This document shows positions 4,051 through 51,888 of a stretch of DNA of 64,000 bases, piece after piece. The translations under genes were made by a program, and so were the position numbers. Origin of the DNA: Patescibacteria group bacterium (GTDB taxonomy: Bacteria; Patescibacteriota; Microgenomatia; Levybacterales; UBA12049); NCBI GenBank assembly GCA_026004395.1, contig BPJB01000001.1, positions 519,343-583,342 on the forward strand, in the 5' to 3' direction. The notes under the pieces were generated by a model. The model ran no database searches, was not told the DNA's origin, and worked only from the letters and a program-made list of their open reading frames with translations. Position 1 is the stretch's first letter. Every line of letters begins with the position of its first letter.

Positions 4051-5445
4051 ATGAAAGAACAAAATCATCTCAATCAAGATAGATTAACAGTTAAAAAAAT
4101 AATACGAAGATCAGCTTCAGCTATTGAGGCAATAAGAGGAAGAGTACATATTTCACCTGAAAAGGAAACACAGACAGAACGTTATGAACTGCGTGGTACA
4201 AAAATAGAAATTGAATCTCCTAGAACACCAATTGATATACATTTAGGGGATACGCATTTACAAATTATAGATGTGCGTGGTGATCCTCACTTGAGAGCAG
4301 ATTATCTTCTTATTGATCCCATAGCTTTTGAGTATTCTAATCAAGAAACAGGATACAAAGGTATTAGAGAAGATGAGCCTTTTACTATTGGCAAAAGTAA
4401 TCATTATAGATTTTATCTCTCAGATAATGTTAGTGAAAACCATCTGAGAATAGATTTAAGAGATTTCAAACTGATAATAGAAGATTTAAACTCAACTAAT
4501 GGAACAGTTGTTCAATTTGATAAACCCAAACTACCAACCAAAGAACAGATTGCAGCTTTTCCCTCGTCACCTGAAAAAATGCAAGCAATTGCTGAATTCT
4601 GTGAATTTATTAAAATACATCATAATCTAATAAAGGATGCTTTAAAAAATGGAGGTAAGCTAGATCATATTTTTTACAGTAATTTCTACAATACTAATAT
4701 TGACAACCCTACATACACAGCACACGATCCTAATTTACAAAGATTAATAGATGAATATCCTGTTCAAATAAATGGTGTCAAAACATATTTTTCAGATAAT
4801 CGACAAAGTAGAGGGTTAAAGCTGTGGGAATCTTCTTATTGGCTTTTCTGCAATACCCATGGTGGATACCGTATGAACAAATTTACAAATTATGGAAGAC
4901 TTTATTTTAATCTCAGACCGGAGTATATCGGACAAATATTTACTCAATCAGCAACAGCATTTCGTGATAGAGGATTACATACACAGATGAAAACTTTTCT
5001 CAACCCAACCATAAGAGCATTTAACCGTTTTGATAAAATGATTATTTATTTTGATGCTGATGAAGAAGAAGATGTTTTACAAATTGTCGATGATTTATAT
5101 CAGAGCAATCAATATGCATTTGATAGCGGTATTCCTCGTTTTACTGTTGCAGTTAGAGATCAAAAAGGCAGAAAAATGACAGGTATTAGTTTTGGCGAAG
5201 AACCAGCTTTTACAAAATATCAAGACAAATCATTTGGTATAGTTAGATCTAAAATTCTCGCTGATGTTTATATGAATGCCAATGACAATCATTGGTTGGT
5301 TACAAAACCAAGTCCAGATTTTGATTTTGCTTTTTATAAAGCCTGCTTAAAATATTTTGTAGATCCCCAAAATCCTGCATTTAATCTACAAGGAAACCCA
5401 GAAAGATTTTCTGAACTAAGAAGGAGATTGAAGTTAAATAAGTAA
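4051..5445 (+). CDS. FHA-domain protein with uncharacterised C-terminal domain
   Basis: 464 aa. Residues ~100-160 (YRFYLSDNVSENHLRIDLRDFKLIIEDLNSTNGTVV) fit the FHA signature G-R..x..S..H..I...-DL.STNGT.VN. The C-terminal ~300 aa match no family I can name. The gene follows a 1.47 kb non-coding gap. Confidence 0.4.
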   Translation: MKEQNHLNQDRLTVKKIIRRSASAIEAIRGRVHISPEKETQTERYELRGTKIEIESPRTPIDIHLGDTHLQIIDVRGDPHLRADYLLIDPIAFEYSNQETGYKGIREDEPFTIGKSNHYRFYLSDNVSENHLRIDLRDFKLIIEDLNSTNGTVVQFDKPKLPTKEQIAAFPSSPEKMQAIAEFCEFIKIHHNLIKDALKNGGKLDHIFYSNFYNTNIDNPTYTAHDPNLQRLIDEYPVQINGVKTYFSDNRQSRGLKLWESSYWLFCNTHGGYRMNKFTNYGRLYFNLRPEYIGQIFTQSATAFRDRGLHTQMKTFLNPTIRAFNRFDKMIIYFDADEEEDVLQIVDDLYQSNQYAFDSGIPRFTVAVRDQKGRKMTGISFGEEPAFTKYQDKSFGIVRSKILADVYMNANDNHWLVTKPSPDFDFAFYKACLKYFVDPQNPAFNLQGNPERFSELRRRLKLNK

Positions 5446-29017: not shown

Positions 29018-29232
29018 AACAAATTTTTCAAAACTGCTAATTTTTTCTTTGTTATTGATTCCTTTCCTGTCTTGTATGCGAAAACAGTCATATTATCCAA
29101 GCAATATTTGTTAGAGTAATTGGTGTGTATAAAAAATTGATTTTTAGGCTTCAAGATTGTTTTAACAAAATCTCAGCAAGTCATCTTTGGAGGTATAGCA
29201 AAAAAGTCTCTTGCATTACGTGTATTTACTAG

Positions 29233-29304
29233 TGAGCCCAGAGGGATTCGAACCCCCAACCAATGCCTTAAGAGGGCACTGCTCTACCGTTGAGCTATGG
29301 GCCC
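29233..29304 (-). tRNA. tRNA-Lys (anticodon CTT)
   Basis: 72 nt. Manual cloverleaf fold: acceptor GGGCCCA/TGGGCTC, D-arm GCTCAACGGTAGAGC, anticodon stem-loop GTGCC-CTCTTAA-GGCAT, T-arm GGGGGTTCGAATCCCTC. CCA is not encoded. Confidence 0.8.
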
Positions 29305-29321
29305 AAAAAAATTATTTTTTG

Positions 29322-29394
29322 TACGCCCGAAGGGAATCGAACCCCCAACCTGATGGTCCGAAGCCATCCGCTCTATCCGTTGAGCTACGGGCGC
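29322..29394 (-). tRNA. tRNA-Arg (anticodon TCG)
   Basis: 73 nt. Acceptor GCGCCCG/CGGGCGT, anticodon stem-loop GATGG-CTTCGGA-CCATC, T-loop TTCGATT. CCA is not encoded. Confidence 0.8.
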
Positions 29395-37005: not shown

Positions 37006-37083
37006 TGGGGTGGCTGAGGGGACTCGAACCCCCGACATTCAGGTCCACAACCTGACGCTCTAACCAACTGAGCTACAGCCACC
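37006..37083 (-). tRNA. tRNA-His (anticodon GTG) with G-1 and encoded CCA
   Basis: 78 nt. Extra 5' G (G-1) opposite discriminator C. Anticodon stem-loop TCAGG-TTGTGGA-CCTGA. T-loop TTCGAGT. 3' CCA is encoded. Confidence 0.8.
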
Positions 37084-38038: not shown

Positions 38039-38101
38039 ATTTTTTTATAGATGAGATATAGTTTACACGAAAAATGTAAGAAACACATCAAAAGCAATTT
38101 G

Positions 38102-38174
38102 TACGCCTGGAGGGATTCGAACCCCCGACCTGGTGCTTAGAACGCACTCGCTCTATCCACTGAGCTACAGGCGC
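38102..38174 (-). tRNA. tRNA-Arg (anticodon TCT)
   Basis: 73 nt. Acceptor GCGCCTG/CAGGCGT. Anticodon stem-loop AGTGC-GTTCTAA-GCACC. T-loop TTCGAAT. Confidence 0.8.
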
Positions 38175-39853: not shown

Positions 39854-40167
39854 GAACTATTATTATACATGATGCTATTACGGATAAAAACAGTATTTCT
39901 CAGTAGGTATTTTTTATATAAGCAAATTATTTCTTATATTTTGCAAAACTTCTTTCAGAGATTCATCTTTAAATAGTTGCAAACTTATTTTTGCTACTTG
40001 TATCTGCGCATCCATAATTTAGGGATATTCAAATGCAATTGAGTTACATTCAGATAAATCAAGATTTTTTTATTGATTCTCTTGATTTTTTTGTCGGATT
40101 CTTGAATGCTCCAGATTGAAGTATTTTGCCAAGTATACCTGTATACTTGGCAATATTGGGATATGTG

Positions 40168-40239
40168 AGCGGGGAACGGGATTCGCACCCGCGACCTCCT
40201 CCTTGGAAGGGAGGCATTCTACTGCTGAACTACCCCCGC
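40168..40239 (-). tRNA. tRNA-Gly (anticodon TCC)
   Basis: 72 nt. Acceptor GCGGGGG/TCCCCGC. Anticodon stem-loop CCTCC-CTTCCAA-GGAGG. T-loop TGCGAAT. Confidence 0.8.
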
Positions 40240-43840: not shown

Positions 43841-44174
43841 TGGTCGCAGTTACTGAACGCCGCTCGAACTTTCTTTGAACGACAATCTGCGCCCTGACGG
43901 GCGCAGAACCCGCCCAGCGGCTCGTCGCCTGACGGCGGCAGGCAAAGCCCGCAAAAATTTCCTTTTCTTTTAAGGGGGACGCGCAAAAAATTTTTTCAAT
44001 TAAGGAAACAATTTTTGCGGGCTTTGCCTCTTTGCTGGCGCAAAGACGAGCCGCTTCCCACCCCCAGTCCGCCTTCGGCGGACAGAGCAGGCGGGCAAAA
44101 ATTCCTTCCCCCAGACCCCCTTCCTTTTTGCCCGCCTGCTTGGGCTTCGCCCTAAAATTTTTTGGCGGGACTAT
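43841..44174 (+). repeat. IR1-L: 334 bp GC-rich hairpin-rich repeat, left copy
   Basis: Exact reverse complement of 49416-49749, checked segment by segment. Built from consecutive stem-loops, e.g. CTGCGCCC-TGAC-GGGCGCAG, TCCGCC-TTCG-GGCGGA, GGCAAAGCCCGCAAAAATT...AATTTTTGCGGGCTTTGCC and GCAGGCGGGCAAAAA...TTTTTGCCCGCCTGC. Confidence 0.85.
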
Positions 44175-44203
44175 AAATCAAAAAGGGCGGTGGGTGGGGT
44201 TAG

Positions 44204-45868
44204 TTACATTAAAACTGTTTTCATTAATTCTTTCAAATAATCAGGTTCTAACAAATCGTTTTCTGAATTAATATTATTCCAACCATCCTTCTCTCCTTTA
44301 TTGTGTTTATAATACATCTCCGGTGCACCGTGTCGCAACACAAAGAATCTTTTATCCTGTAAACTCCGTATCAAATCATCAAAACCATCAGGCACTCCTT
44401 TTTCATCTAATTTTTGAACTATATAATCTAGTTTCGGATCACCATCATTTTGCCAATCAATGTGTGCACGAAACCTCCTGAGCAACTCTTTTTCCAGTCC
44501 AAATTCTTCGAGCAGATACTCTATATCACGACTAAATAGATAATCCAAATCGCATATCACAGCAATATCATCAAAACACATCTGCTGATAAAATTTTCTC
44601 GCCAACCTTAATTGCTTTTTGCCATCGGCTTTAATGAAAAGAGTAAATTTTCCCTTTGGAGGATGAATATTAAAAATGATTTTTAATTTTTCATAAAAAT
44701 TCTCGTCATGACTGCCTTCAATTAAAACAACGCTGTCAGCAAATAACCCTTCAAGATTTCCACGACGCTCAAGGTGTCGTTTAACTAAACTTACATCAAC
44801 GCTGGATGGATTGAGAGCGATATTTTTGGTTCCTTCCTCTTTAGTTTTTCTTACTCTCCGATAGCCCTCAATAGTTGTTGGTGTAACAATGAAAGGTGAA
44901 TGTGTAGTTGTTACTATCTGATAACGCTCCATCATTTGGATTAAAGCATTTGCCATCTCACGTTGAGCATACGGATGAAGAAAAGATTCTAATTCTCCAA
45001 TTAAAAATATTGGCGCAGGACGATCTTGGTATCTTTTGCCTTTTTTAGCTAGCAACTTCAAAAAAGCTAATAATGTTGCTCTCTGCAAGCCATGCCCTTT
45101 TTGTTCTACTTCTGTTTTATGTCCATCATCAAGGAAAATCTTCATCTCTTTTGCAATAACAGTTTCGTCTGGTAAACCAAATTCAACAGATGGTGTAATA
45201 TCACTAAATTCACCCATAAATTCTTCTTTTAATCCAGCCTCGAACTCTGTGATTGCTTTGGAGCGTACTCCCTCTTCTTCGCTATGGAGGAAATTGTCTA
45301 AATCTGTTAAAACAGATTTTGTTTTAACAGCTAATTCTTGAAAAAATGAACTCATTACTTCTTTTTTTAATTTTCCCAATGCTGTTGTAGATTTATCAGT
45401 TAATTCTTGAACAGTATCAGCAGTAGCTGGAATTGATATAACATCTGGGAGAATTTTTAATAAATTTCCTGTAAAACCACTTGGATTGTGTAAAGTGCCA
45501 TCTTCTTTATAAATACCAATCTGAGCACCCGACTCCGGAGTTAGTATAGAGGCAATTTTCAAAATACCATTATCAATAGCGTTTTCTATTGCCTCTTTGT
45601 GATTACTAGCCTTTACTAAATGAGTAAAATCACTAATTCCTGCAAATTCGCCCTCTAAAACTATCGGTTTATCTTTGTCATGTTGCCATTTTGGAATATG
45701 CTCCTTCCTTATTCCAGTAGATAGCAATAATTCAGTTGCCTTCAGATAATGTGACTTCCCTGCGTTGTTTCTACCAACAAAAAAAGTAAATTCATTGAAA
45801 AAAACCTCATCTTCTTTGATTGGTCCTAAATTTTTAATTGTTAACTTTTTTAATAAAACCCTACTCAT
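44204..45868 (-). CDS. OLD-family ATP-dependent endonuclease (AAA ATPase plus Toprim), GajA-like
   Basis: N-terminal LTIKNLGPIK...FTFFVGRNNAGKSHYLKA (Walker A of the AAA_15/21 family). ABC-like signature and Walker B FLIGELESFLHP. C-terminal Toprim with VVLIEGSHDE and a DxD in VICDLDYL. Confidence 0.8.
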   Translation of the reverse strand: MSRVLLKKLTIKNLGPIKEDEVFFNEFTFFVGRNNAGKSHYLKATELLLSTGIRKEHIPKWQHDKDKPIVLEGEFAGISDFTHLVKASNHKEAIENAIDNGILKIASILTPESGAQIGIYKEDGTLHNPSGFTGNLLKILPDVISIPATADTVQELTDKSTTALGKLKKEVMSSFFQELAVKTKSVLTDLDNFLHSEEEGVRSKAITEFEAGLKEEFMGEFSDITPSVEFGLPDETVIAKEMKIFLDDGHKTEVEQKGHGLQRATLLAFLKLLAKKGKRYQDRPAPIFLIGELESFLHPYAQREMANALIQMMERYQIVTTTHSPFIVTPTTIEGYRRVRKTKEEGTKNIALNPSSVDVSLVKRHLERRGNLEGLFADSVVLIEGSHDENFYEKLKIIFNIHPPKGKFTLFIKADGKKQLRLARKFYQQMCFDDIAVICDLDYLFSRDIEYLLEEFGLEKELLRRFRAHIDWQNDGDPKLDYIVQKLDEKGVPDGFDDLIRSLQDKRFFVLRHGAPEMYYKHNKGEKDGWNNINSENDLLEPDYLKELMKTVLM

Positions 45869-45883
45869 AGAGTTCTTGTAATT

Positions 45884-46804
45884 TTATAAATCAAATCTTT
45901 TGTTTAATTTGTACATTTTGTTATCTAATAGTTTCAAATTCTTTTCTTTATTTTTCCAAATTTCTTTAAAATCCTTGTCTCTCATTGTGCGAATTTCACC
46001 AAGATAGACAGATACATAACAACCATTTACTTTTGTCTCTTTCGCTTGTTTTAGATTTTTTTCTGTAATTTTTATATACTGAGGGTCAATATCTATCCCA
46101 ATATACTTTCGTCCTAAACGTTTAGCGGCGACAGCGGTAGTTCCCGTACCAATGAATGGATCAAATACAATATCTCCCTCGTCGGTACTCATCAAAATAA
46201 GTCTCTCTAGTAATGGCACAGGTAATTGACAAGGATGTTCGTCTCTTCGTTTTTTATGACGGATTCTGTGAATGTCAGACCAAACATCGGAAAGAAGAGG
46301 GCCAAAGCCATGTGCTTGATCCTTTTTACCCCCATAATCTTTCAAAAACTCCTTACAGACACGACAGCGTGGATGTGGATATCTAATGTCATAAAACTTA
46401 AAATCCTTGTATGATTTTGATTTTGTGTAATATAAAATCCCATAGTGATTCGGTAAAAGCGTCTTGCCCATCGGTGCACCACCGGAATCCCAAGTAATCC
46501 AATGCCTAAAATAGGCGATTTTGTTTAGGTACTCGGCAAAGTGCGATAACCAACGGGGAATATTATGAACAAAAATAGATCCGCTTGGTTTTGTAATTCT
46601 CACCATCTCGTTCATCCATTTATTGCACCATTCTAAATACTCCTCTTTTTCTTTTGTGTCCTCATAGTGGTTATATTTTTTCTTCAAGTTAAAAGGCGGG
46701 TCAGCAAAAGTCATATCCACTGAATTGTCAGGGATATCTTTCATCACTTCCAAACAATCGCCTAGAATAATTTTGTTCTCAAATTTTTTAATATCTTTGC
46801 CCAT
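45884..46804 (-). CDS. DNA amino-methyltransferase (N6A/N4C, beta-class order IV then I)
   Basis: Motif IV TFADPPFN near the N-terminus. Motif I DIVFDPFIGTGTTAVAA near the C-terminus. Confidence 0.85.
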   Translation of the reverse strand: MGKDIKKFENKIILGDCLEVMKDIPDNSVDMTFADPPFNLKKKYNHYEDTKEKEEYLEWCNKWMNEMVRITKPSGSIFVHNIPRWLSHFAEYLNKIAYFRHWITWDSGGAPMGKTLLPNHYGILYYTKSKSYKDFKFYDIRYPHPRCRVCKEFLKDYGGKKDQAHGFGPLLSDVWSDIHRIRHKKRRDEHPCQLPVPLLERLILMSTDEGDIVFDPFIGTGTTAVAAKRLGRKYIGIDIDPQYIKITEKNLKQAKETKVNGCYVSVYLGEIRTMRDKDFKEIWKNKEKNLKLLDNKMYKLNKRFDL

Positions 46805-46806
46805 AA

Positions 46807-47826
46807 CTACTTGTTGAATACGGTTGATAACAATTCTTTAAAGCGATTAAGTTCCTCTTTGTGAAAAGTAAATACTTCATCATAAGCTCCAACCATTCTT
46901 TTAAGGTCGTTTTTTCTTACATACCAACCAATACCATCCACAAAACCAATAAATAGAGCTTTGGGATAATGCTTTTTGATGAGCTTAGCAACATTTATCT
47001 CTGTTTTTGCTTTGTCTCCTTGGCCAGAGGAAGTCGTTACAACATAAGAAGACTCGACAATCAATAATGGATTATTCTGATCGGGAATAATAAAATCCAT
47101 TGTTCGTTTTTCTTCATCCAGTACACCAACTAATTTTTGTAGATCTCCAGAAGTATATGGTATTTCAAGCTCCTCTAAAATTTTCTCAATAAGCACTTCT
47201 GGGTTATTTTCTTTTTTACCGGCATACGATCCTTTTTCTTTGTAGCGTATTAAAGTATCAACAAGAGATTCTATTTTAAATTCCAGCTTTTCAACACTTA
47301 GCTTTTTAAGTTCAAATAAAGGCAGGGCTTGAGTTAGTACAGGAACGGTAGAGCCCTCAAAAAATATATTTACAATTCCTTTCGCAAAGTTTTCATTATT
47401 CTTTATTAGATTAGCAATCTTTGAGTCGCTCCATTCACTAACTCCTCCCTCATCAATTTCTTCTGTTCCTGTTTGCCATTTATCTTTCAATGTAAGCCTG
47501 TTTAATTCCTCATCGTCAATCACTCTTATTAGAGTTATTAAGCGTTTTAAATATTCATTTGAGATGCCAGTCAATGCAAGTAGTGCTCGCAAGCCGTTTT
47601 TCTTATTGCGGATTAATTCAACAAAAAAGTCTTTCTTAAGTCCTTCTGTTGAGACTTTATTTCGCAATACTAAAAGTAATTCTTTGATTGAAGAAATATA
47701 GCCCTCGTATTTTTCCTCAAAATCACGGTCGTAAAGATAAAAGGTATTTTTATCTATAACCAGCTTAAATTTTGATTCAGTTGTGGGTTTTGAAATTTTA
47801 ATCATATTTTTATTTGTCATTTTCAA
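46807..47826 (-). CDS. Hypothetical protein, candidate restriction endonuclease of the RM operon
   Basis: 339 aa with no family match. The position between two MTase genes and a C-terminal MDFIIPDQNNPLLIVESSY stretch with possible PD..E nuclease residues suggest the R subunit. This is an inference from context only. Confidence 0.3.
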   Translation of the reverse strand: MKMTNKNMIKISKPTTESKFKLVIDKNTFYLYDRDFEEKYEGYISSIKELLLVLRNKVSTEGLKKDFFVELIRNKKNGLRALLALTGISNEYLKRLITLIRVIDDEELNRLTLKDKWQTGTEEIDEGGVSEWSDSKIANLIKNNENFAKGIVNIFFEGSTVPVLTQALPLFELKKLSVEKLEFKIESLVDTLIRYKEKGSYAGKKENNPEVLIEKILEELEIPYTSGDLQKLVGVLDEEKRTMDFIIPDQNNPLLIVESSYVVTTSSGQGDKAKTEINVAKLIKKHYPKALFIGFVDGIGWYVRKNDLKRMVGAYDEVFTFHKEELNRFKELLSTVFNK

Positions 47827-49039
47827 AAATTAAAATATATTCTTCCTTCATCGTATTTTGGAGACCTTTAATTGGTTTCAAAATTTCAAAAAGAAATTTA
47901 AACTTTTGCCCTTCTGCTAATTCTTTAATTTTCGTCTCCAATCTAACACCTTTTGTCTGAATATCGTTAGTTCCAACCACAAAAATAGTTTTGCTACCCT
48001 TTTTACTAACTCTTGCCAATTCTCTAAACACTTTATCAAGCATTTCAAAATAAAGTTCCAACTTTTGACTTATTCCTCTGCCTTGCAAACCAATCATCTT
48101 TTCTTTTAACTTGTCTGGGGCATAGCCAAGATATTCCAATTGTGGTTTATCATTATCTACATAATCTATTGCAAAAGAATAAGGCGGGGAGGTAATTACG
48201 CCGTCAACGCTATTATCTTCCAAGGGTAATTTTAACGCACTATCTTCAATAATTTTACTTTTCCCTATTTTTAAACCTAATTTTTCTCTTGCATTTTGGA
48301 AATTTTTGATAGTTGTTATATACCTGTTAAGTACAATTGGAAAAAGAGCACTTAACGATTTAGAGCTTCTGCGCGCGAAACCCACGGCATCAAGATAGGC
48401 TAATAAAGCAACTTCGTAGTATGACCTATCTTCATCGTCGCCATCTTTTATAAAATAGTGCGGTACTTTATCCTTGTTTAACTTTTTAAAAATTTTATTT
48501 TGTTCGTGGGTTATTTGAGTAAGTTTTTCGCTGTTAAGATTTAAGGCAAAAGTTTTTACTCTGCCCATCAAACAACAAAAGGGACTTACATCGACGCCCA
48601 CTGAATCAATGCCTAACAAATTTGCCTCTACTGATAAAGTCGCACTACCAGACATTGGATCAAGAACAACATTGCCCGGTTTTAGACCCATCATATTTAG
48701 TAAAGCCCTTATCATCTGTGGATGAAATTTGCCTCTATATGGGAATAAACTATGAGTGGCGTATCCTGTAGAATATTTACCATTTAAGAAAAAGGCTTTT
48801 GTGCGTAAGGAACTATTGCGATGTATATCTTCTAAATTTTGAAGATTGCAAGTCTGGTAGTGAATCGTTGGCTCGCCTTCTACTGATTTAAAGTATGCAC
48901 TGCGCCTAATTAAATCTTTTTTATTAAGATTTTCATATTCCCAAATAGCAAAATTTAACTCAAAAATTTCATCAGTCCCATCAATTAACTGATAGTCAGT
49001 AGGAAATAATTTTTTTGTTATTGGTTGAAAATTTTGCAT
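47810..49039 (-). CDS. DNA amino-methyltransferase (order I then IV, SPPY)
   Basis: Motif I VVLDPMSGSATL precedes motif IV VITSPPYSFAIDY. This is a second, differently organised MTase in the same operon. Confidence 0.7.
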   Translation of the reverse strand: MQNFQPITKKLFPTDYQLIDGTDEIFELNFAIWEYENLNKKDLIRRSAYFKSVEGEPTIHYQTCNLQNLEDIHRNSSLRTKAFFLNGKYSTGYATHSLFPYRGKFHPQMIRALLNMMGLKPGNVVLDPMSGSATLSVEANLLGIDSVGVDVSPFCCLMGRVKTFALNLNSEKLTQITHEQNKIFKKLNKDKVPHYFIKDGDDEDRSYYEVALLAYLDAVGFARRSSKSLSALFPIVLNRYITTIKNFQNAREKLGLKIGKSKIIEDSALKLPLEDNSVDGVITSPPYSFAIDYVDNDKPQLEYLGYAPDKLKEKMIGLQGRGISQKLELYFEMLDKVFRELARVSKKGSKTIFVVGTNDIQTKGVRLETKIKELAEGQKFKFLFEILKPIKGLQNTMKEEYILIFENDK

Positions 49040-49041
49040 AG

Positions 49042-49254
49042 TTATTTAATCAAATCATCAATCGGCACATCTAATGCTTTCGCAAGTTTAGTTATAGTTT
49101 CAAAAGTAGGATTTTTATTTACTCCATTCTCAATTTTTACAACGGTATTTAATGAAAGATCTGCAAGACGAGCCACTTTCTCAAGAGAATAGCCCTTTTT
49201 AGCCCTTAATTTTTTTAGATTATCCGATATTTTATTTGACATTTGCATATCCAT
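49042..49254 (-). CDS. XRE-family HTH protein, probable RM controller (C) protein
   Basis: 70 aa. LKKLRAKKGYSLEKVARLADLSLNTVVKIENGVNKNPTFETITKLAKALDV is a classic XRE HTH of C-protein size. It is the first gene of the minus-strand operon. A candidate promoter lies at 49330-49365 on the minus strand: -35 TTGATG, -10 TGGATAAT. Confidence 0.7.
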   Translation of the reverse strand: MDMQMSNKISDNLKKLRAKKGYSLEKVARLADLSLNTVVKIENGVNKNPTFETITKLAKALDVPIDDLIK

Positions 49255-49415
49255 TGTTTAACATTATAGTATATAGATTATATTCTAAACTTTCTTATTT
49301 TTCTATTATAATGATAACTAATTATCCAGAAAAAGTAAAGAAAAATCATCAAGGGAGTTTCCTTTTGTCGCCCGCGCATGGGTTGGGTGGGGCAAGGGCG
49401 ACTATAAAAAATACA

Positions 49416-49749
49416 ATAGTCCCGCCAAAAAATTTTAGGGCGAAGCCCAAGCAGGCGGGCAAAAAGGAAGGGGGTCTGGGGGAAGGAATTTTTGCCCGCC
49501 TGCTCTGTCCGCCGAAGGCGGACTGGGGGTGGGAAGCGGCTCGTCTTTGCGCCAGCAAAGAGGCAAAGCCCGCAAAAATTGTTTCCTTAATTGAAAAAAT
49601 TTTTTGCGCGTCCCCCTTAAAAGAAAAGGAAATTTTTGCGGGCTTTGCCTGCCGCCGTCAGGCGACGAGCCGCTGGGCGGGTTCTGCGCCCGTCAGGGCG
49701 CAGATTGTCGTTCAAAGAAAGTTCGAGCGGCGTTCAGTAACTGCGACCA
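49416..49749 (-). repeat. IR1-R: 334 bp inverted copy of IR1-L
   Basis: Perfect reverse complement of 43841-44174. It overlaps IR2-L by the hexamer CGACCA (49744-49749). Confidence 0.85.
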
Positions 49750-49902
49750 TACGATACTTTCAGAGTTTTTGGGCGAGTTTGATTGCTCGCTCGCCTCGCC
49801 AGAGGCGAGGCTCGCTTCGCAAATTTCCTTATATTTCGGCACTAAATCAAGGGGCGGACGGAAATCAAAGAGGATTTTTCTGTCCAGCAGGCGGCGGTTC
49901 GT
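49744..49902 (+). repeat. IR2-L: 159 bp GC-rich repeat upstream of the serine recombinase gene
   Basis: Exact reverse complement of 51446-51604. Contains hairpins GCGAG-TTTGATT-GCTCGC and GCCTCGCC-AGA-GGCGAGGC. Confidence 0.85.
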
Positions 49903-50074
49903 GGACGCAAAGCGCCCAGGGCAAAAGCCACCTTATAGAAAATCTATTGAATGCTTTTGCTCTCCAATTTTTTCCGCCTTTTGCCAAAGGTAAAAGAACA
50001 AAGCAAGTTTTTAATCTCGCGCTTTACACTGCGCCACAGGCGCAGTGGCCAAAGGCGACTAACCTAAAAGCAAT

Positions 50075-51664
50075 ATGAAGATCAAATACTTTTTATACGC
50101 TCGCAAATCAACAGAGGACGAAGAAAGACAAGTGATGTCTATTGAAGCCCAGCTTGCGGAGTTGGCGGAATATGCCAAGCGCGAAGGGCTGGAAATTATT
50201 GAGCAGTTTGTGGAAAGCAAAAGCGCAAAGAAGCCCGGGCGAGAAATTTTTAATAAGATGATTGAAAAAATCCATACCAGCAAAAGCCCGGTTGGCATTT
50301 TAGCGTGGCACCCTGATAGATTGGCAAGAAACAGCGTTGACGGCGGGCAGGTTATTTACCTCATAGACCAAGGCAAAATCGCTTCTTTGCGCTTTCCTAC
50401 TTTTTGGTTTGAGCCAACTCCGCAAGGACTTTTTATGCTTCAAGTCGCCTTTGGCCAAAGTAAGTATTACTCGGACAACTTGTCCGAGAATGTAAAGCGC
50501 GGGATTCGCCAAAAACTCAGGCGCGGGGAATATCCGGGCAAAGCTCCGCTTGGATATGTAAATAATCCCAAGACAAGGAACATTGAGCCAGACCCGACCA
50601 AAGCAAAAATTGTGGCAAAAGCCTTTGAGGAGTTTGCCCAAGGAAAGCACACTCTCAAAAGTTTAGGCGAGCGCCTGAGTTTTTGGGGCGTGGTGAGCAA
50701 AAACGGCACACCTCTTGCCAAAGCCACAATCCAACGAATGCTCACTAATCCAACTTATCTCGGCTTGATTGTCCACAAGGGCGAAACCTACGAGGGCAAG
50801 TTTCCTCCAATTATTTCCAGAGCGACTTTTTCAGCCGTTCAAAAAATGTTGAAGCAGAGAGCAAGGCCGCGCAAAACAAGAAAAGGACACAACTTCCCGT
50901 TTGTCGGGCTTTTCCGGTGCGGAGAGTGCGGCGGTATGATAACCGCGCAGTGGGCAAAAGGAAAATACCGCTACTACCGGTGCACAAAGAAGTTTGACAA
51001 ATGCAGCCAAGGATACTTGCGCGAGGACTTGCTCGTTGCCCAGCTTAAAGAAAAGCTGAAAAAAGTCGCTCTCTGCGAAGACTGGGCGGAAAAGATGTTG
51101 GTAAAGGTAGATGAATGGGAAAAGGAACAAGCCCAGTCTTCGCAGTCTTTCGCCCAAAATCTTGAGGAGAAAATCAAAGAAACCGAACAAAAGCTGGATA
51201 GATTAGTTAACGCCTTTTTGGACGGCACCATTGAAAAAGAGACCTATCTTGCCAAGAAAGACGAACTCATTAAAACTAAAACCGCCCTTCTGGAAAAGAA
51301 AGGCGATTTTGGGCGAAAGGGAAACAATTGGATCGAACCATTGAGAAATTGGATAAAAGACGCTCACCACGCCGAAAAACTTGCTTTGTCTCAACCCAGC
51401 CCATTAGATTTATATGAATGGGCTGGGTTTGCGGAAAAAATTGGAACGAACCGCCGCCTGCTGGACAGAAAAATCCTCTTTGATTTCCGTCCGCCCCTTG
51501 ATTTAGTGCCGAAATATAAGGAAATTTGCGAAGCGAGCCTCGCCTCTGGCGAGGCGAGCGAGCAATCAAACTCGCCCAAAAACTCTGAAAGTATCGTATG
51601 GTCGGGGACAGAGGACTCGAACCTCCGACCTCACGGTCCCAAACCGCGCGCTCTAGCCAACTGA
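50075..51664 (+). CDS. Large serine recombinase (serine integrase/transposase type)
   Basis: N-terminal resolvase catalytic domain with YARKSTEDEERQVMSIEAQ (catalytic Ser in RKST), a recombinase domain, a zinc ribbon CGECGG...YRCTKKFDKC, and a coiled-coil. GC content is about 50% against a roughly 33% background. The last ~50 codons lie inside IR2-R and the final ~20 codons run into tRNA-Pro, so the C-terminal extent is uncertain. Confidence 0.85.
   Translation: MKIKYFLYARKSTEDEERQVMSIEAQLAELAEYAKREGLEIIEQFVESKSAKKPGREIFNKMIEKIHTSKSPVGILAWHPDRLARNSVDGGQVIYLIDQGKIASLRFPTFWFEPTPQGLFMLQVAFGQSKYYSDNLSENVKRGIRQKLRRGEYPGKAPLGYVNNPKTRNIEPDPTKAKIVAKAFEEFAQGKHTLKSLGERLSFWGVVSKNGTPLAKATIQRMLTNPTYLGLIVHKGETYEGKFPPIISRATFSAVQKMLKQRARPRKTRKGHNFPFVGLFRCGECGGMITAQWAKGKYRYYRCTKKFDKCSQGYLREDLLVAQLKEKLKKVALCEDWAEKMLVKVDEWEKEQAQSSQSFAQNLEEKIKETEQKLDRLVNAFLDGTIEKETYLAKKDELIKTKTALLEKKGDFGRKGNNWIEPLRNWIKDAHHAEKLALSQPSPLDLYEWAGFAEKIGTNRRLLDRKILFDFRPPLDLVPKYKEICEASLASGEASEQSNSPKNSESIVWSGTEDSNLRPHGPKPRALAN
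51446..51604 (-). repeat. IR2-R: inverted copy of IR2-L, inside the recombinase 3' end and abutting tRNA-Pro
   Basis: Perfect reverse complement of 49744-49902. Its last 6 bp (TGGTCG on the plus strand) are the 3' terminal CGACCA of tRNA-Pro. Confidence 0.85.
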
Positions 51665-51675
51665 GCTAGTCCCCG
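51599..51675 (-). tRNA. tRNA-Pro (anticodon TGG), CCA encoded
   Basis: 77 nt. Acceptor CGGGGAC/GTCCCCG. Anticodon stem-loop CGCGG-TTTGGGA-CCGTG. T-loop TTCGAGT. 3' ACCA. The 3' end coincides with the element boundary. Confidence 0.8.
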
Positions 51676-51803
51676 TATCGCATTTGCAATTCATTTTGCA
51701 GTAGCTTTTGAAAATCCATCTCTATATTCTTACCTATTATCATTACAAACTTTTGATTGCATTCATTACCTCAATTTGATTTATCTTAATTAACTTTGAT
51801 GAG

Positions 51804-51888
51804 TGCCGCGAGAGAGACTCGAACTCTCACGTCCTTTTAGGGACAAAGGCTCTTAAGGCCCTCGTGTCTACCATTCCACCACCGCGGC
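51804..51888 (-). tRNA. tRNA-Leu (anticodon TAA) with long variable arm
   Basis: 85 nt. Acceptor GCCGCGG. Anticodon stem-loop AGGGC-CTTAAGA-GCCTT. Long variable arm TGTCCCTAAAAGGACGT. T-arm GAGAGTTCGAGTCTCTC. Confidence 0.75.

Follow-up and report, generated by a model that had tools for sequence, protein, structure and literature searches.

Repeats, recombinase gene and tRNA gene at the locus

The locus described here lies in a window of 64,000 nucleotides (nt) from a Patescibacteria group bacterium (assembly GCA_026004395.1, contig BPJB01000001.1, positions 519,343 to 583,342 of the forward strand), the window being the whole stretch of DNA that was analysed. In it, an open reading frame (ORF) for a large serine recombinase (LSR) runs head-on into the gene for tRNA-Pro(TGG) and is bracketed by inverted repeats, which we interpret as parts of the attachment (att) sites of an integrative element of 7,758 bp. 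An earlier note, made from the sequence alone, had recorded an exact inverted pair at this gene, and the pair was confirmed: 49744-49902 is the reverse complement of 51446-51604 over 159 nt at 100% identity (inverted repeat 2, IR2), and the match cannot be extended at either end. A match that is perfect over 159 nt cannot have a chance origin within 64 kb. A second inverted pair (IR1), 43841-44174 and 49416-49749, is 334 nt long and likewise 100% identical, and IR1 and IR2 are the only long repeats in the window. The right arm of IR1 adjoins the left arm of IR2; the two overlap in a 6-nt core (CGACCA, 49744-49749) and make up a single block of 487 nt (49416-49902) with a G+C content (GC) of 54% within a genome of 33% GC. 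The features are as follows; att names are those of the proposed integration.

43841..43846: attL core TGGTCG, forming the element's left boundary, beyond which lies host DNA; the same left flank is found in the empty site of locus L168
43841..44174, plus strand: left copy of the T segment (left arm of IR1, 55% GC), the exact reverse complement of 49416-49749
49416..49902, minus strand: P2, the second, uninterrupted attP-type site, inverted; reverse complement of T (49416-49743), core CGACCA (49744-49749) and left arm of IR2 (49744-49902)
50075..51664, plus strand: large serine recombinase ORF in its post-integration form, 529 aa; residues 1-510 native, residues 511-529 from antisense tRNA-Pro
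51446..51604, plus strand: right arm of IR2 (the C arm), P-type half of attR, coding for residues 458-510
51599..51604: attR core TGGTCG, antisense of the tRNA 3'-terminal CGACCA
51599..51675, minus strand: tRNA-Pro(TGG), the integration target (right half of attB); found by ARAGORN, Rfam tRNA 62 bits; intact and identical in sequence to the empty site

In keeping with the earlier note, the right copy of IR2 lies inside the 3' end of the recombinase ORF (codons 458-510), the ORF reads on for 19 codons into the antisense tRNA, and the left copy ends 172 nt upstream of the start codon. The repeat does not stop exactly at the tRNA terminus, as had been stated, and instead covers the last 6 nt of the tRNA. 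The T arm contains GC-rich hairpins, one of which (43887-43906) encloses the native stop codon of the recombinase, and each T arm has a long local palindrome (43941-44028 and 49562-49649) with a perfect 20-bp stem, AGGCAAAGCCCGCAAAAATT, and a 50-nt loop. Compensatory changes occur in the T-arm stems among close relatives. An ORF of 280 aa that runs through the internal block (49236-50078) was rejected as a gene; it is open only in the three GC-richest relatives.

Pfam searches recognised the Resolvase (PF00239, E = 1e-21, residues 6-152), Recombinase (PF07508) and Zn_ribbon_recom (PF13408) domains in the protein, and a PDB search gave resolvase-domain matches to its N-terminal part. In a sequence search against solved LSR structures no alignment extended past residue ~240, and the C-terminus could not be placed in this way. 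The AlphaFold 2 model of a relative with a native tail (moderate confidence, predicted local distance difference test score 70) has a beta-ribbon at residues 288-306 and long helices at 338-417. The arm is predicted to encode a C-terminal extension past the coiled coil, with a last helix (503-524) that straddles the core.

Homologues of the recombinase, at 65-90% identity, are very numerous, and they end in two different ways. Native C-termini read ...WS-QLLN(E/A)xRTxFE, which is the internal block read backwards from 49743 (QLLNAARTFFERQSAP followed by a stop), while the other class ends in ...WS-G followed by peptides translated from antisense tRNA, for example DSNPRP and ELNP. The core TGG TCG codes for W509-S510, 16 codons ahead of the native stop, and the T segment at 43841-44174 codes for the native 16-codon tail and stop of the recombinase, a tail that matches the native-tail homologues. 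Since the two classes diverge after W-S, the W-S codons of the ORF mark the crossover point. The native tail is conserved, its Leu, Thr and Phe codons varying synonymously. These findings support the suggestion of the earlier note that the present 3' end of the ORF is a product of integration; relatives carry the same repeat, and the sequence as far as ...WS is real coding sequence of the family. No relative of the recombinase above 30% identity was found in cultured phages and plasmids, and none was found among IMG/VR contigs. Look-ups of the exact recombinase sequence, and of two proteins encoded in the left flank, gave no existing record. On all criteria that can be tested from sequence, the enzyme is a large serine recombinase with the reaction attP x attB.

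Probable integration at the CCA terminus of tRNA-Pro

A related Patescibacteria species (L168) carries a syntenic empty site, in which the left flank passes directly into tRNA-Pro: ...GTTTAGAT-TGGTCG-GGGACAGAGG (...TTTAGAT-TGGTCG-GGGACAG...). On one side the synteny with the window takes in a GDSL lipase, an ATP-binding cassette (ABC) transporter and an ORF of 94 aa; on the other it takes in an S11 peptidase, Exo_endo_phos, BacA, a membrane fusion protein and a resistance-nodulation-division pump. When attB, attL, attR and attP were aligned with L168 their four-way relationship was the textbook one, and a 5-nt gap was needed to align TCGAAC. The empty site and this alignment define the element as 43847-51604, 7,758 bp, enclosing 5.2 kb of cargo and both repeats. 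The ends in the window share TGGTCG only; no tRNA segment is duplicated, and there is no target duplication beyond the core. In L168 a further stretch of about 1 kb (4253-5307), with a 213-aa ORF in it, separates the left-flank homology from the ~90 nt next to the tRNA; the window lacks this stretch.

All three copies are visible in 17 relatives, with a uniform pattern: the right copy consists of the C arm, core and antisense tRNA (attR), the internal copy of the C arm, core and T (attP-type), and the far copy of host DNA, core and T (attL). The core shared by the three junction copies is only 3-6 nt long. Both half-sites contain TCGAAC, which is the tRNA T-loop read in antisense. Its CGAAC stands at +14-18 on the tRNA side and at +19-23 on the T side, where its distance from the core is thus 5 nt greater. 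In large serine integrases, attP half-sites are told apart from attB half-sites by a shift of ~5 bp in the motif for DNA-binding domain 2, which is their published hallmark (PMC11722253). An independent assembly, from Logan, reproduced the attR junction of the window at 100% identity and breaks 24 nt into the arm. The same strain is present in Logan run DRR290133.

As far as can be judged from sequence, it is highly probable (about 0.85) that IR2 represents one arm (C) of the site by which an LSR integrative element of 7,758 bp, 43847-51604, is attached at the CCA end of tRNA-Pro(TGG). The idea of a recombinase-driven mobile element at a tRNA gene, put forward in the earlier note, is upheld, but not that of a unit bounded by the 159-bp arms, since the empty site and the 17 relatives place the ends at 43847 and 51604. 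That the element supplies the tRNA's 3' end is true only in the trivial sense that the 6-nt core is shared.

The free form of the element would be a circle consisting of C-core-T, cargo, an inverted C-core-T and the body of the recombinase gene, with two inverted attP copies of ~490 bp, one of them inside the recombinase ORF, where T would code for the last 16 residues and the stop. The LSR would catalyse attP x attB at the core, and its zinc-ribbon domain probably reads the T-loop-like TCGAAC motif. Recombination of the in-gene attP with the tRNA end (attB) would give attR (C, TGGTCG and tRNA, 51446-51604 onward) and attL (host DNA, TGGTCG and T, 43841-44174). Because integration would split the in-gene attP, the ORF would now run into the antisense tRNA, and because the other copy (49416-49902) would be left whole, two nested inverted repeats, the halves of a single inverted attP duplication, would overlap in the core. 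Excision would presumably restore the native C-terminus. The integrated state that persists has the tail swapped and the gene head-on to the tRNA, and for these two reasons it may be read as self-silenced, or locked. P2 lies between the divergent genes for a helix-turn-helix (HTH) protein and the recombinase and could bind the recombinase; the long identical arms may be kept alike by gene conversion.

The large serine integrases (A118/LI, Bxb1, phiC31 and SPbeta Int, and Ccr of SCCmec) have the same resolvase catalytic and recombinase domains and a zinc ribbon with a long coiled coil, and resemble this system in their simple crossover, very short core, 5-nt motif shift between attP and attB, and conversion of attB x attP into attL and attR. 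Unlike them, the recombinase studied here is at most 30% identical to any phage or plasmid recombinase searched, its target is a tRNA CCA end, its attP is part of the recombinase ORF, repeats of ~160-490 bp contain a second attP in inverted orientation, and the arms are conserved as DNA far past the ~50 bp of a normal LSR site. In the SSV-type archaeal integrases (review PMC8371274) attP also lies in the integrase ORF and integration into a tRNA gene alters the product; these are, however, tyrosine recombinases cut into two large parts, whereas here a serine recombinase loses its last 16 codons and an intact copy of the site is kept. The tRNA islands with tyrosine integrases, among them the tycheposons, are likewise small cargo islands at tRNA 3' ends with defence genes aboard, but they have direct repeats of a 15-50-bp tRNA 3' segment and mostly tyrosine recombinases (910/937 tycheposons), whereas here the shared sequence is only 3-6 nt long and the repeats at the flanks are inverted (bioRxiv 10.1101/2020.12.28.424599). 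Full-text literature searches found no description of a doubled inverted attP with one copy in the recombinase ORF. The features not found described are the in-ORF attP, the tRNA CCA-end target, the long DNA-constrained arms and the second intact inverted attP.

The family and the second attachment-site copy

Scans yielded at least 549 genomic and at least 576 metagenomic relatives. The recombinases of the family are 59-90% identical, and their hosts belong to more than 8 phyla and include Patescibacteria, Omnitrophota, Bacteroidota, Planctomycetota, Gammaproteobacteria and Actinomycetota. The survey classified 167 loci from genomes and metagenomes, with arms defined by BLAST, and the layouts included the following.

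69 of 167 loci (canonical layout): upstream copy attP-type, in-gene copy joined to antisense tRNA
35 loci: contig ends before the upstream copy can be classed, in-gene copy joined to antisense tRNA
3 loci (L001, L093, L139): both copies attP-type
9 loci, all short unbinned contigs: contig ends before the upstream copy can be classed, in-gene copy with native tail (T)

The upstream copy is kept in roughly 90% or more of the loci with enough sequence, and practically all relatives have T-type sequence on the outer side of the left arm. Two of the three loci with both copies attP-type have diverged arms and are thus not assembly ambiguities. Three native-tail contigs (L084, L085 and L094) terminate within the outer repeat, and in two of the three the start, too, falls within the inner arm; these contig ends are compatible with a circle of C-T, cargo, inverted C-T and gene body. 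The inversion of the recombinase gene proposed in the earlier note is geometrically possible but was not seen: in the 39 canonical loci with arms so short or so diverged that they cannot mislead an assembler, the reverse state is absent (0/39), and the gene reads into the tRNA, which is always joined to the in-gene copy. L051 and L059 had been considered as flipped integrants, with sense tRNA joined to the upstream arm, and were dropped; both contigs stop exactly at the start of the second arm. The opposite cargo orientations of L084 and L085 were likewise dropped as isomers, as the assemblies cannot resolve the repeats. Perfect arms longer than the k-mer give one assembly graph for both orientations, and these four loci are therefore not evidence of flipping.

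The integration target was tRNA-Pro in 86 of 117 cases (tgg 33, ggg 32, cgg 21), and more distant members use Ala, Gln, Trp and other tRNAs. The elements span ~3.3-11 kb (29 elements with both ends). Two copies per genome were seen in a 6.2-Mb Bacteroidales contig (L068 and L082, in different tRNA-Pro isoacceptor genes), in another contig (L134 and L157) and in one metagenome-assembled genome (MAG; L024 and L031). Rarely, tRNA-Pro stands on both sides of the arm-gene-arm unit (L037, 1-4661; L031, 9630-11571). In L037 the arms belong to two element sublineages, the left tRNA being tRNA-Pro(ggg) and the right one tRNA-Pro(cgg), and the arrangement looks like a rearrangement between elements in different tRNA-Pro genes. 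It recalls the integrase-driven tRNA-tRNA inversions reported in Thermococcales (PMC5495485).

The arms have a median length of 158 nt. Among 56 arm pairs 26 were 100% identical, 37 at least 98% and 13 less than 95%, though the elements themselves differ by 10-40%. Mismatches between arms have a density of 1.5% within 60 nt of the core vs 3-6% further in, and are thus 3-4 times rarer near the core. Synonymous divergence was 0.137 in the arm vs 0.356 in the gene body of the same pairs, which indicates that the whole arm is conserved as DNA. The ratio of nonsynonymous to synonymous differences (pN/pS) was 0.6 in the arm vs 0.12 in the gene body, so that protein constraint on the arm is weak. In the elements with diverged arms the upstream copy has frameshifting indels and 2-3 stops, and its T half is strongly conserved. 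On these comparative data we tentatively favour, at somewhat less than even odds, a second copy that acts as a DNA site and not as a spare gene end; it may serve as an operator in autoregulation, in an unproductive attP-attP synapsis, or as an alternative crossover site. Attachment-site tetramers of the attP-attP type are documented for SPbeta integrase. A wider proposal, which we regard as doubtful, is that these elements form a class, widespread across phyla, whose attachment site is not the usual simple one of ~50 bp but an arm of at least 150 bp that is constrained as DNA and translated as a C-terminal extension of the recombinase, and that the doubled inverted site is a built-in control device, in which integration at the CCA end of a tRNA would swap the terminal helix and lock the element, the upstream copy being the synapsis or operator site or a template for unlocking.

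That last possibility can be put in a stronger form, in which the upstream copy is a spare 3' end and a 1.5-kb inversion, mediated by RecA or by the recombinase, restores the native tail, stop and terminator and turns a locked element into one competent for excision. The geometry permits such an inversion, the long arms are for the most part identical, the conserved native tail belongs to the predicted terminal helix that straddles the core, and native tails were found only on short unbinned contigs while integrants always have the swapped one. We nevertheless think this switch unlikely, given that no flipped integrant occurs among the 39 informative loci, that L051 and L059 are equally explained as alternative walks through an assembly graph, and that the upstream copy bears frameshifts and stops where the arms have diverged, with an arm pN/pS of 0.6. 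Somewhat less likely again is a functionless relic, an ancestral inverted att duplication whose copies stay similar only through gene conversion. Some members without the second copy, the 13 of 56 arm pairs below 95% identity and the loss of the upstream open frame in diverged pairs would fit a relic, but it is hard to reconcile with retention of the copy at the frequency given above among recombinases 59-90% identical in more than 8 phyla, with the strong conservation of the upstream T half or with mismatches that avoid the 60 nt adjoining the core.

The unit suggested in the earlier note, in which the recombinase gene and its 159-bp arms form a small mobile or invertible element resembling an insertion sequence (IS) with terminal inverted repeats, would account for the many ~2-kb contigs that hold only gene and arms and for the tRNA on both flanks in L031 and L037. 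We consider it very improbable. The empty site sets the boundaries at 43847/51604 and leaves the left arm of IR2 internal; in almost all loci this arm is flanked by T and not by target DNA; and, unlike in IS elements and transposons, the inverted repeats are not the element termini and there is no target-site duplication. The ~2-kb contigs result from assembly breaks at the repeats, the two sublineages represented in the arms of L037 point to a secondary rearrangement, and the arrangement arm-gene-arm at unrelated sites, without T, cargo or tRNA, is absent from the 167 loci. The chance of an assembly artefact (a fold-back chimera or a mis-joined repeat) is negligible: both repeats are indeed perfect, and contigs of relatives very often break at the arms, but the layout recurs in more than 60 independent assemblies, including the long-read MAGs L041 and L043, and also where the arms differ by 2-20% and cannot be collapsed, and the Logan assembly has the same attR junction.

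Several observations weigh against the integrative element with a functional second site as we propose it. L090, L010, L086 and L157 are without the second copy, which is thus not required for persistence. The coding arm compared with the upstream arm gave a pN/pS of 0.55, but coding arms of different elements gave 0.62, so by this measure a DNA site and a spare coding end look alike. On the current view, attP x attP is not a reaction of canonical LSRs. Although the two attP copies do not differ, the tRNA is on the in-gene copy in essentially every case, which would imply selection against the other state. Arms of 160-490 bp are longer than a simple binding site needs, and the shared core of 3-6 nt does not narrow the crossover down to its 2 bp. 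Finally, where arms of 159 and 334 nt are perfect, a short-read assembly does not settle which way round the recombinase and cargo segments of the window lie, and the layout given for them is taken as canonical by analogy. L090 (5454-11597) consists of T, 4.4 kb of cargo, the recombinase and a C arm joined to tRNA-Pro(cgg), and its T end lies 27 nt from a neighbouring tRNA-Pro(ggg).

Doubled inverted recombination sites are known from the yeast 2-micron plasmid, where the FRT sites of the tyrosine recombinase FLP lie inside 599-bp inverted repeats and FLP recombines both sites. The free circle proposed here would similarly be split by two long inverted repeats that bear target sites, with the recombinase gene abutting one of them; unlike the 2-micron plasmid, there are no replication genes in 87 cargo ORFs and no proven isomer pair, and an LSR would not be expected to use attP x attP productively. 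In Tn3 and gamma-delta, a three-subsite res lies between the divergent tnpA and tnpR genes, the latter for a small resolvase. P2 resembles res as a serine-recombinase site between divergent element genes, binding to which could repress both, but P2 is a full copy of an integrative attP, and regulation from it is hypothetical. With invertons and shufflons the element shares inverted repeats flanking a segment and a recombinase gene nearby, but not the reverse orientation (0/39).

The family defined here is a large and uncharacterised group of recombinases for which attP, attB, attL and attR can be read directly from sequence. Its target, the 3' end of tRNA-Pro, is near-universal, and the enzymes are candidate genetic tools for lineages that have none. 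The islands, of 3-11 kb and with no visible transfer genes, are a route by which restriction-modification and Old-type systems move among very distant bacteria. They also explain why MAG contigs often end by tRNA-Pro at a "recombinase family protein" with a C-terminus resembling a translated tRNA. A doubled inverted attP with one copy in the gene is outside the current picture of serine integrases, and the strict bias to one integrated state is a concrete and testable puzzle.

Leader, cargo and neighbouring genes

Between P2 and the recombinase start codon lies a leader with the following features, one motif of which recurs at the inner boundary of the right arm.

49903..50074, plus strand: recombinase leader, between left arm and start codon
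49903-49917: hairpin H1, in the leader
49963-49975: invariant motif TCCAATTTTTTCC, in the leader
49978-49996: hairpin H2, in the leader
50027-50047: hairpin H3, in the leader, the one described in the earlier note
50047-50059: invariant motif GGCCAAAGGCGAC, in the leader
51433..51445, plus strand: GGAAAAAATTGGA, DNA-invariant, directly 5' of the right arm; reverse complement of the leader motif 49963-49975

The leader hairpins covary, with 91% of positions paired vs 34-49% in slid controls, changes on both sides in 11 of 19 pairs and none of 500 shuffles scoring as high, the structure having been defined by eye on the very sequences then tested, for which closer relatives were used. RNAalifold found no structure in two gappy leader alignments, an Rfam search of the window gave matches to tRNAs only and none for the leader, and a promoter scan of the leader gave no sigma-70-like site. 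The hairpin CTGCGCC-ACA-GGCGCAG is real and conserved, but its position is 50029-50045 (full stem 50027-50047) and not 50022-50038 as first recorded; the two hairpins that had been assigned to one family are alike in this element, but their stems vary independently among relatives. The invariant linear motifs of 49903-50059 include AAGCAAGTTTTTTAATCCCGCGCTTT and GGCCAAAGGCGAC.

The motif at the inner boundary, GGAAAAAATTGGAACGAACCG (51433-51453; GGAAAAAATTGGA followed by ACGAACCG), is invariant as DNA in 59 elements, at synonymous positions too, its codons being fixed as GGA for Gly, ACG for Thr and AAC for Asn. The leader contains its first 13 nt again in inverted form, TCCAATTTTTTCC, set off from the left arm by an insert of ~57 nt. 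This motif may be an extra protein-binding site. GAACGAA and CGAACC are present in the T half-site also. A second GGATCGAACC, a motif of the CGAACC type, is found inside the recombinase gene (51325-51340), ~113 nt ahead of the arm, in the conserved NWIEPL codons.

The remaining genes of the element are these.

44204..45868, minus strand: Old-family ATPase/TOPRIM nuclease, cargo; Pfam AAA_15 and OLD-like_TOPRIM, PADLOC Old, E = 1.6e-66
45884..46804, minus strand: type II N6/N4 DNA methyltransferase, cargo; PF01555, E = 9e-53, PADLOC MTase_II
46807..47826, minus strand: DpnII/BanI-like type II restriction endonuclease, cargo; PF04556, E = 4e-7, PADLOC REase_II
47810..49039, minus strand: second DNA methyltransferase, cargo; PF01170 and PF01555, PADLOC MTase_II
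49042..49254, minus strand: Xre-type HTH protein of 70 aa; PF01381

In ~20 relatives whose cargo is unrelated, a homologue of the HTH protein (37-82% identity) is encoded at the corresponding place and divergently from the recombinase. Thus, the HTH gene belongs to the conserved core of the element family and not to the cargo, and it is a candidate partner for excision. In the family the outer repeat recurs together with variable cargo, which comprises mostly restriction-modification systems of types I-III, OLD/AAA ATPases and Panacea antitoxins; no replication or transfer genes were among the matches listed for family cargo.

The core module (T, arms and recombinase) has a GC of 47-55%, the cargo 34% and the host 33%, which suggests that the cargo was acquired in a low-GC lineage and that the core module is foreign to this host in composition. 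The host belongs to the Microgenomates group of Patescibacteria, and its best named matches are to Ca. Levybacteria. Over 80 loci the GC of the recombinase gene correlates weakly with that of the host (r = 0.33). Six other tRNA genes are present in the window, all on the minus strand (at 29232-29394, 37006-37082, 38101-38174, 40167-40239 and 51803-51888), with no element adjoining any of them. One neighbour, tRNA-Leu(taa), lies 128 nt from tRNA-Pro.

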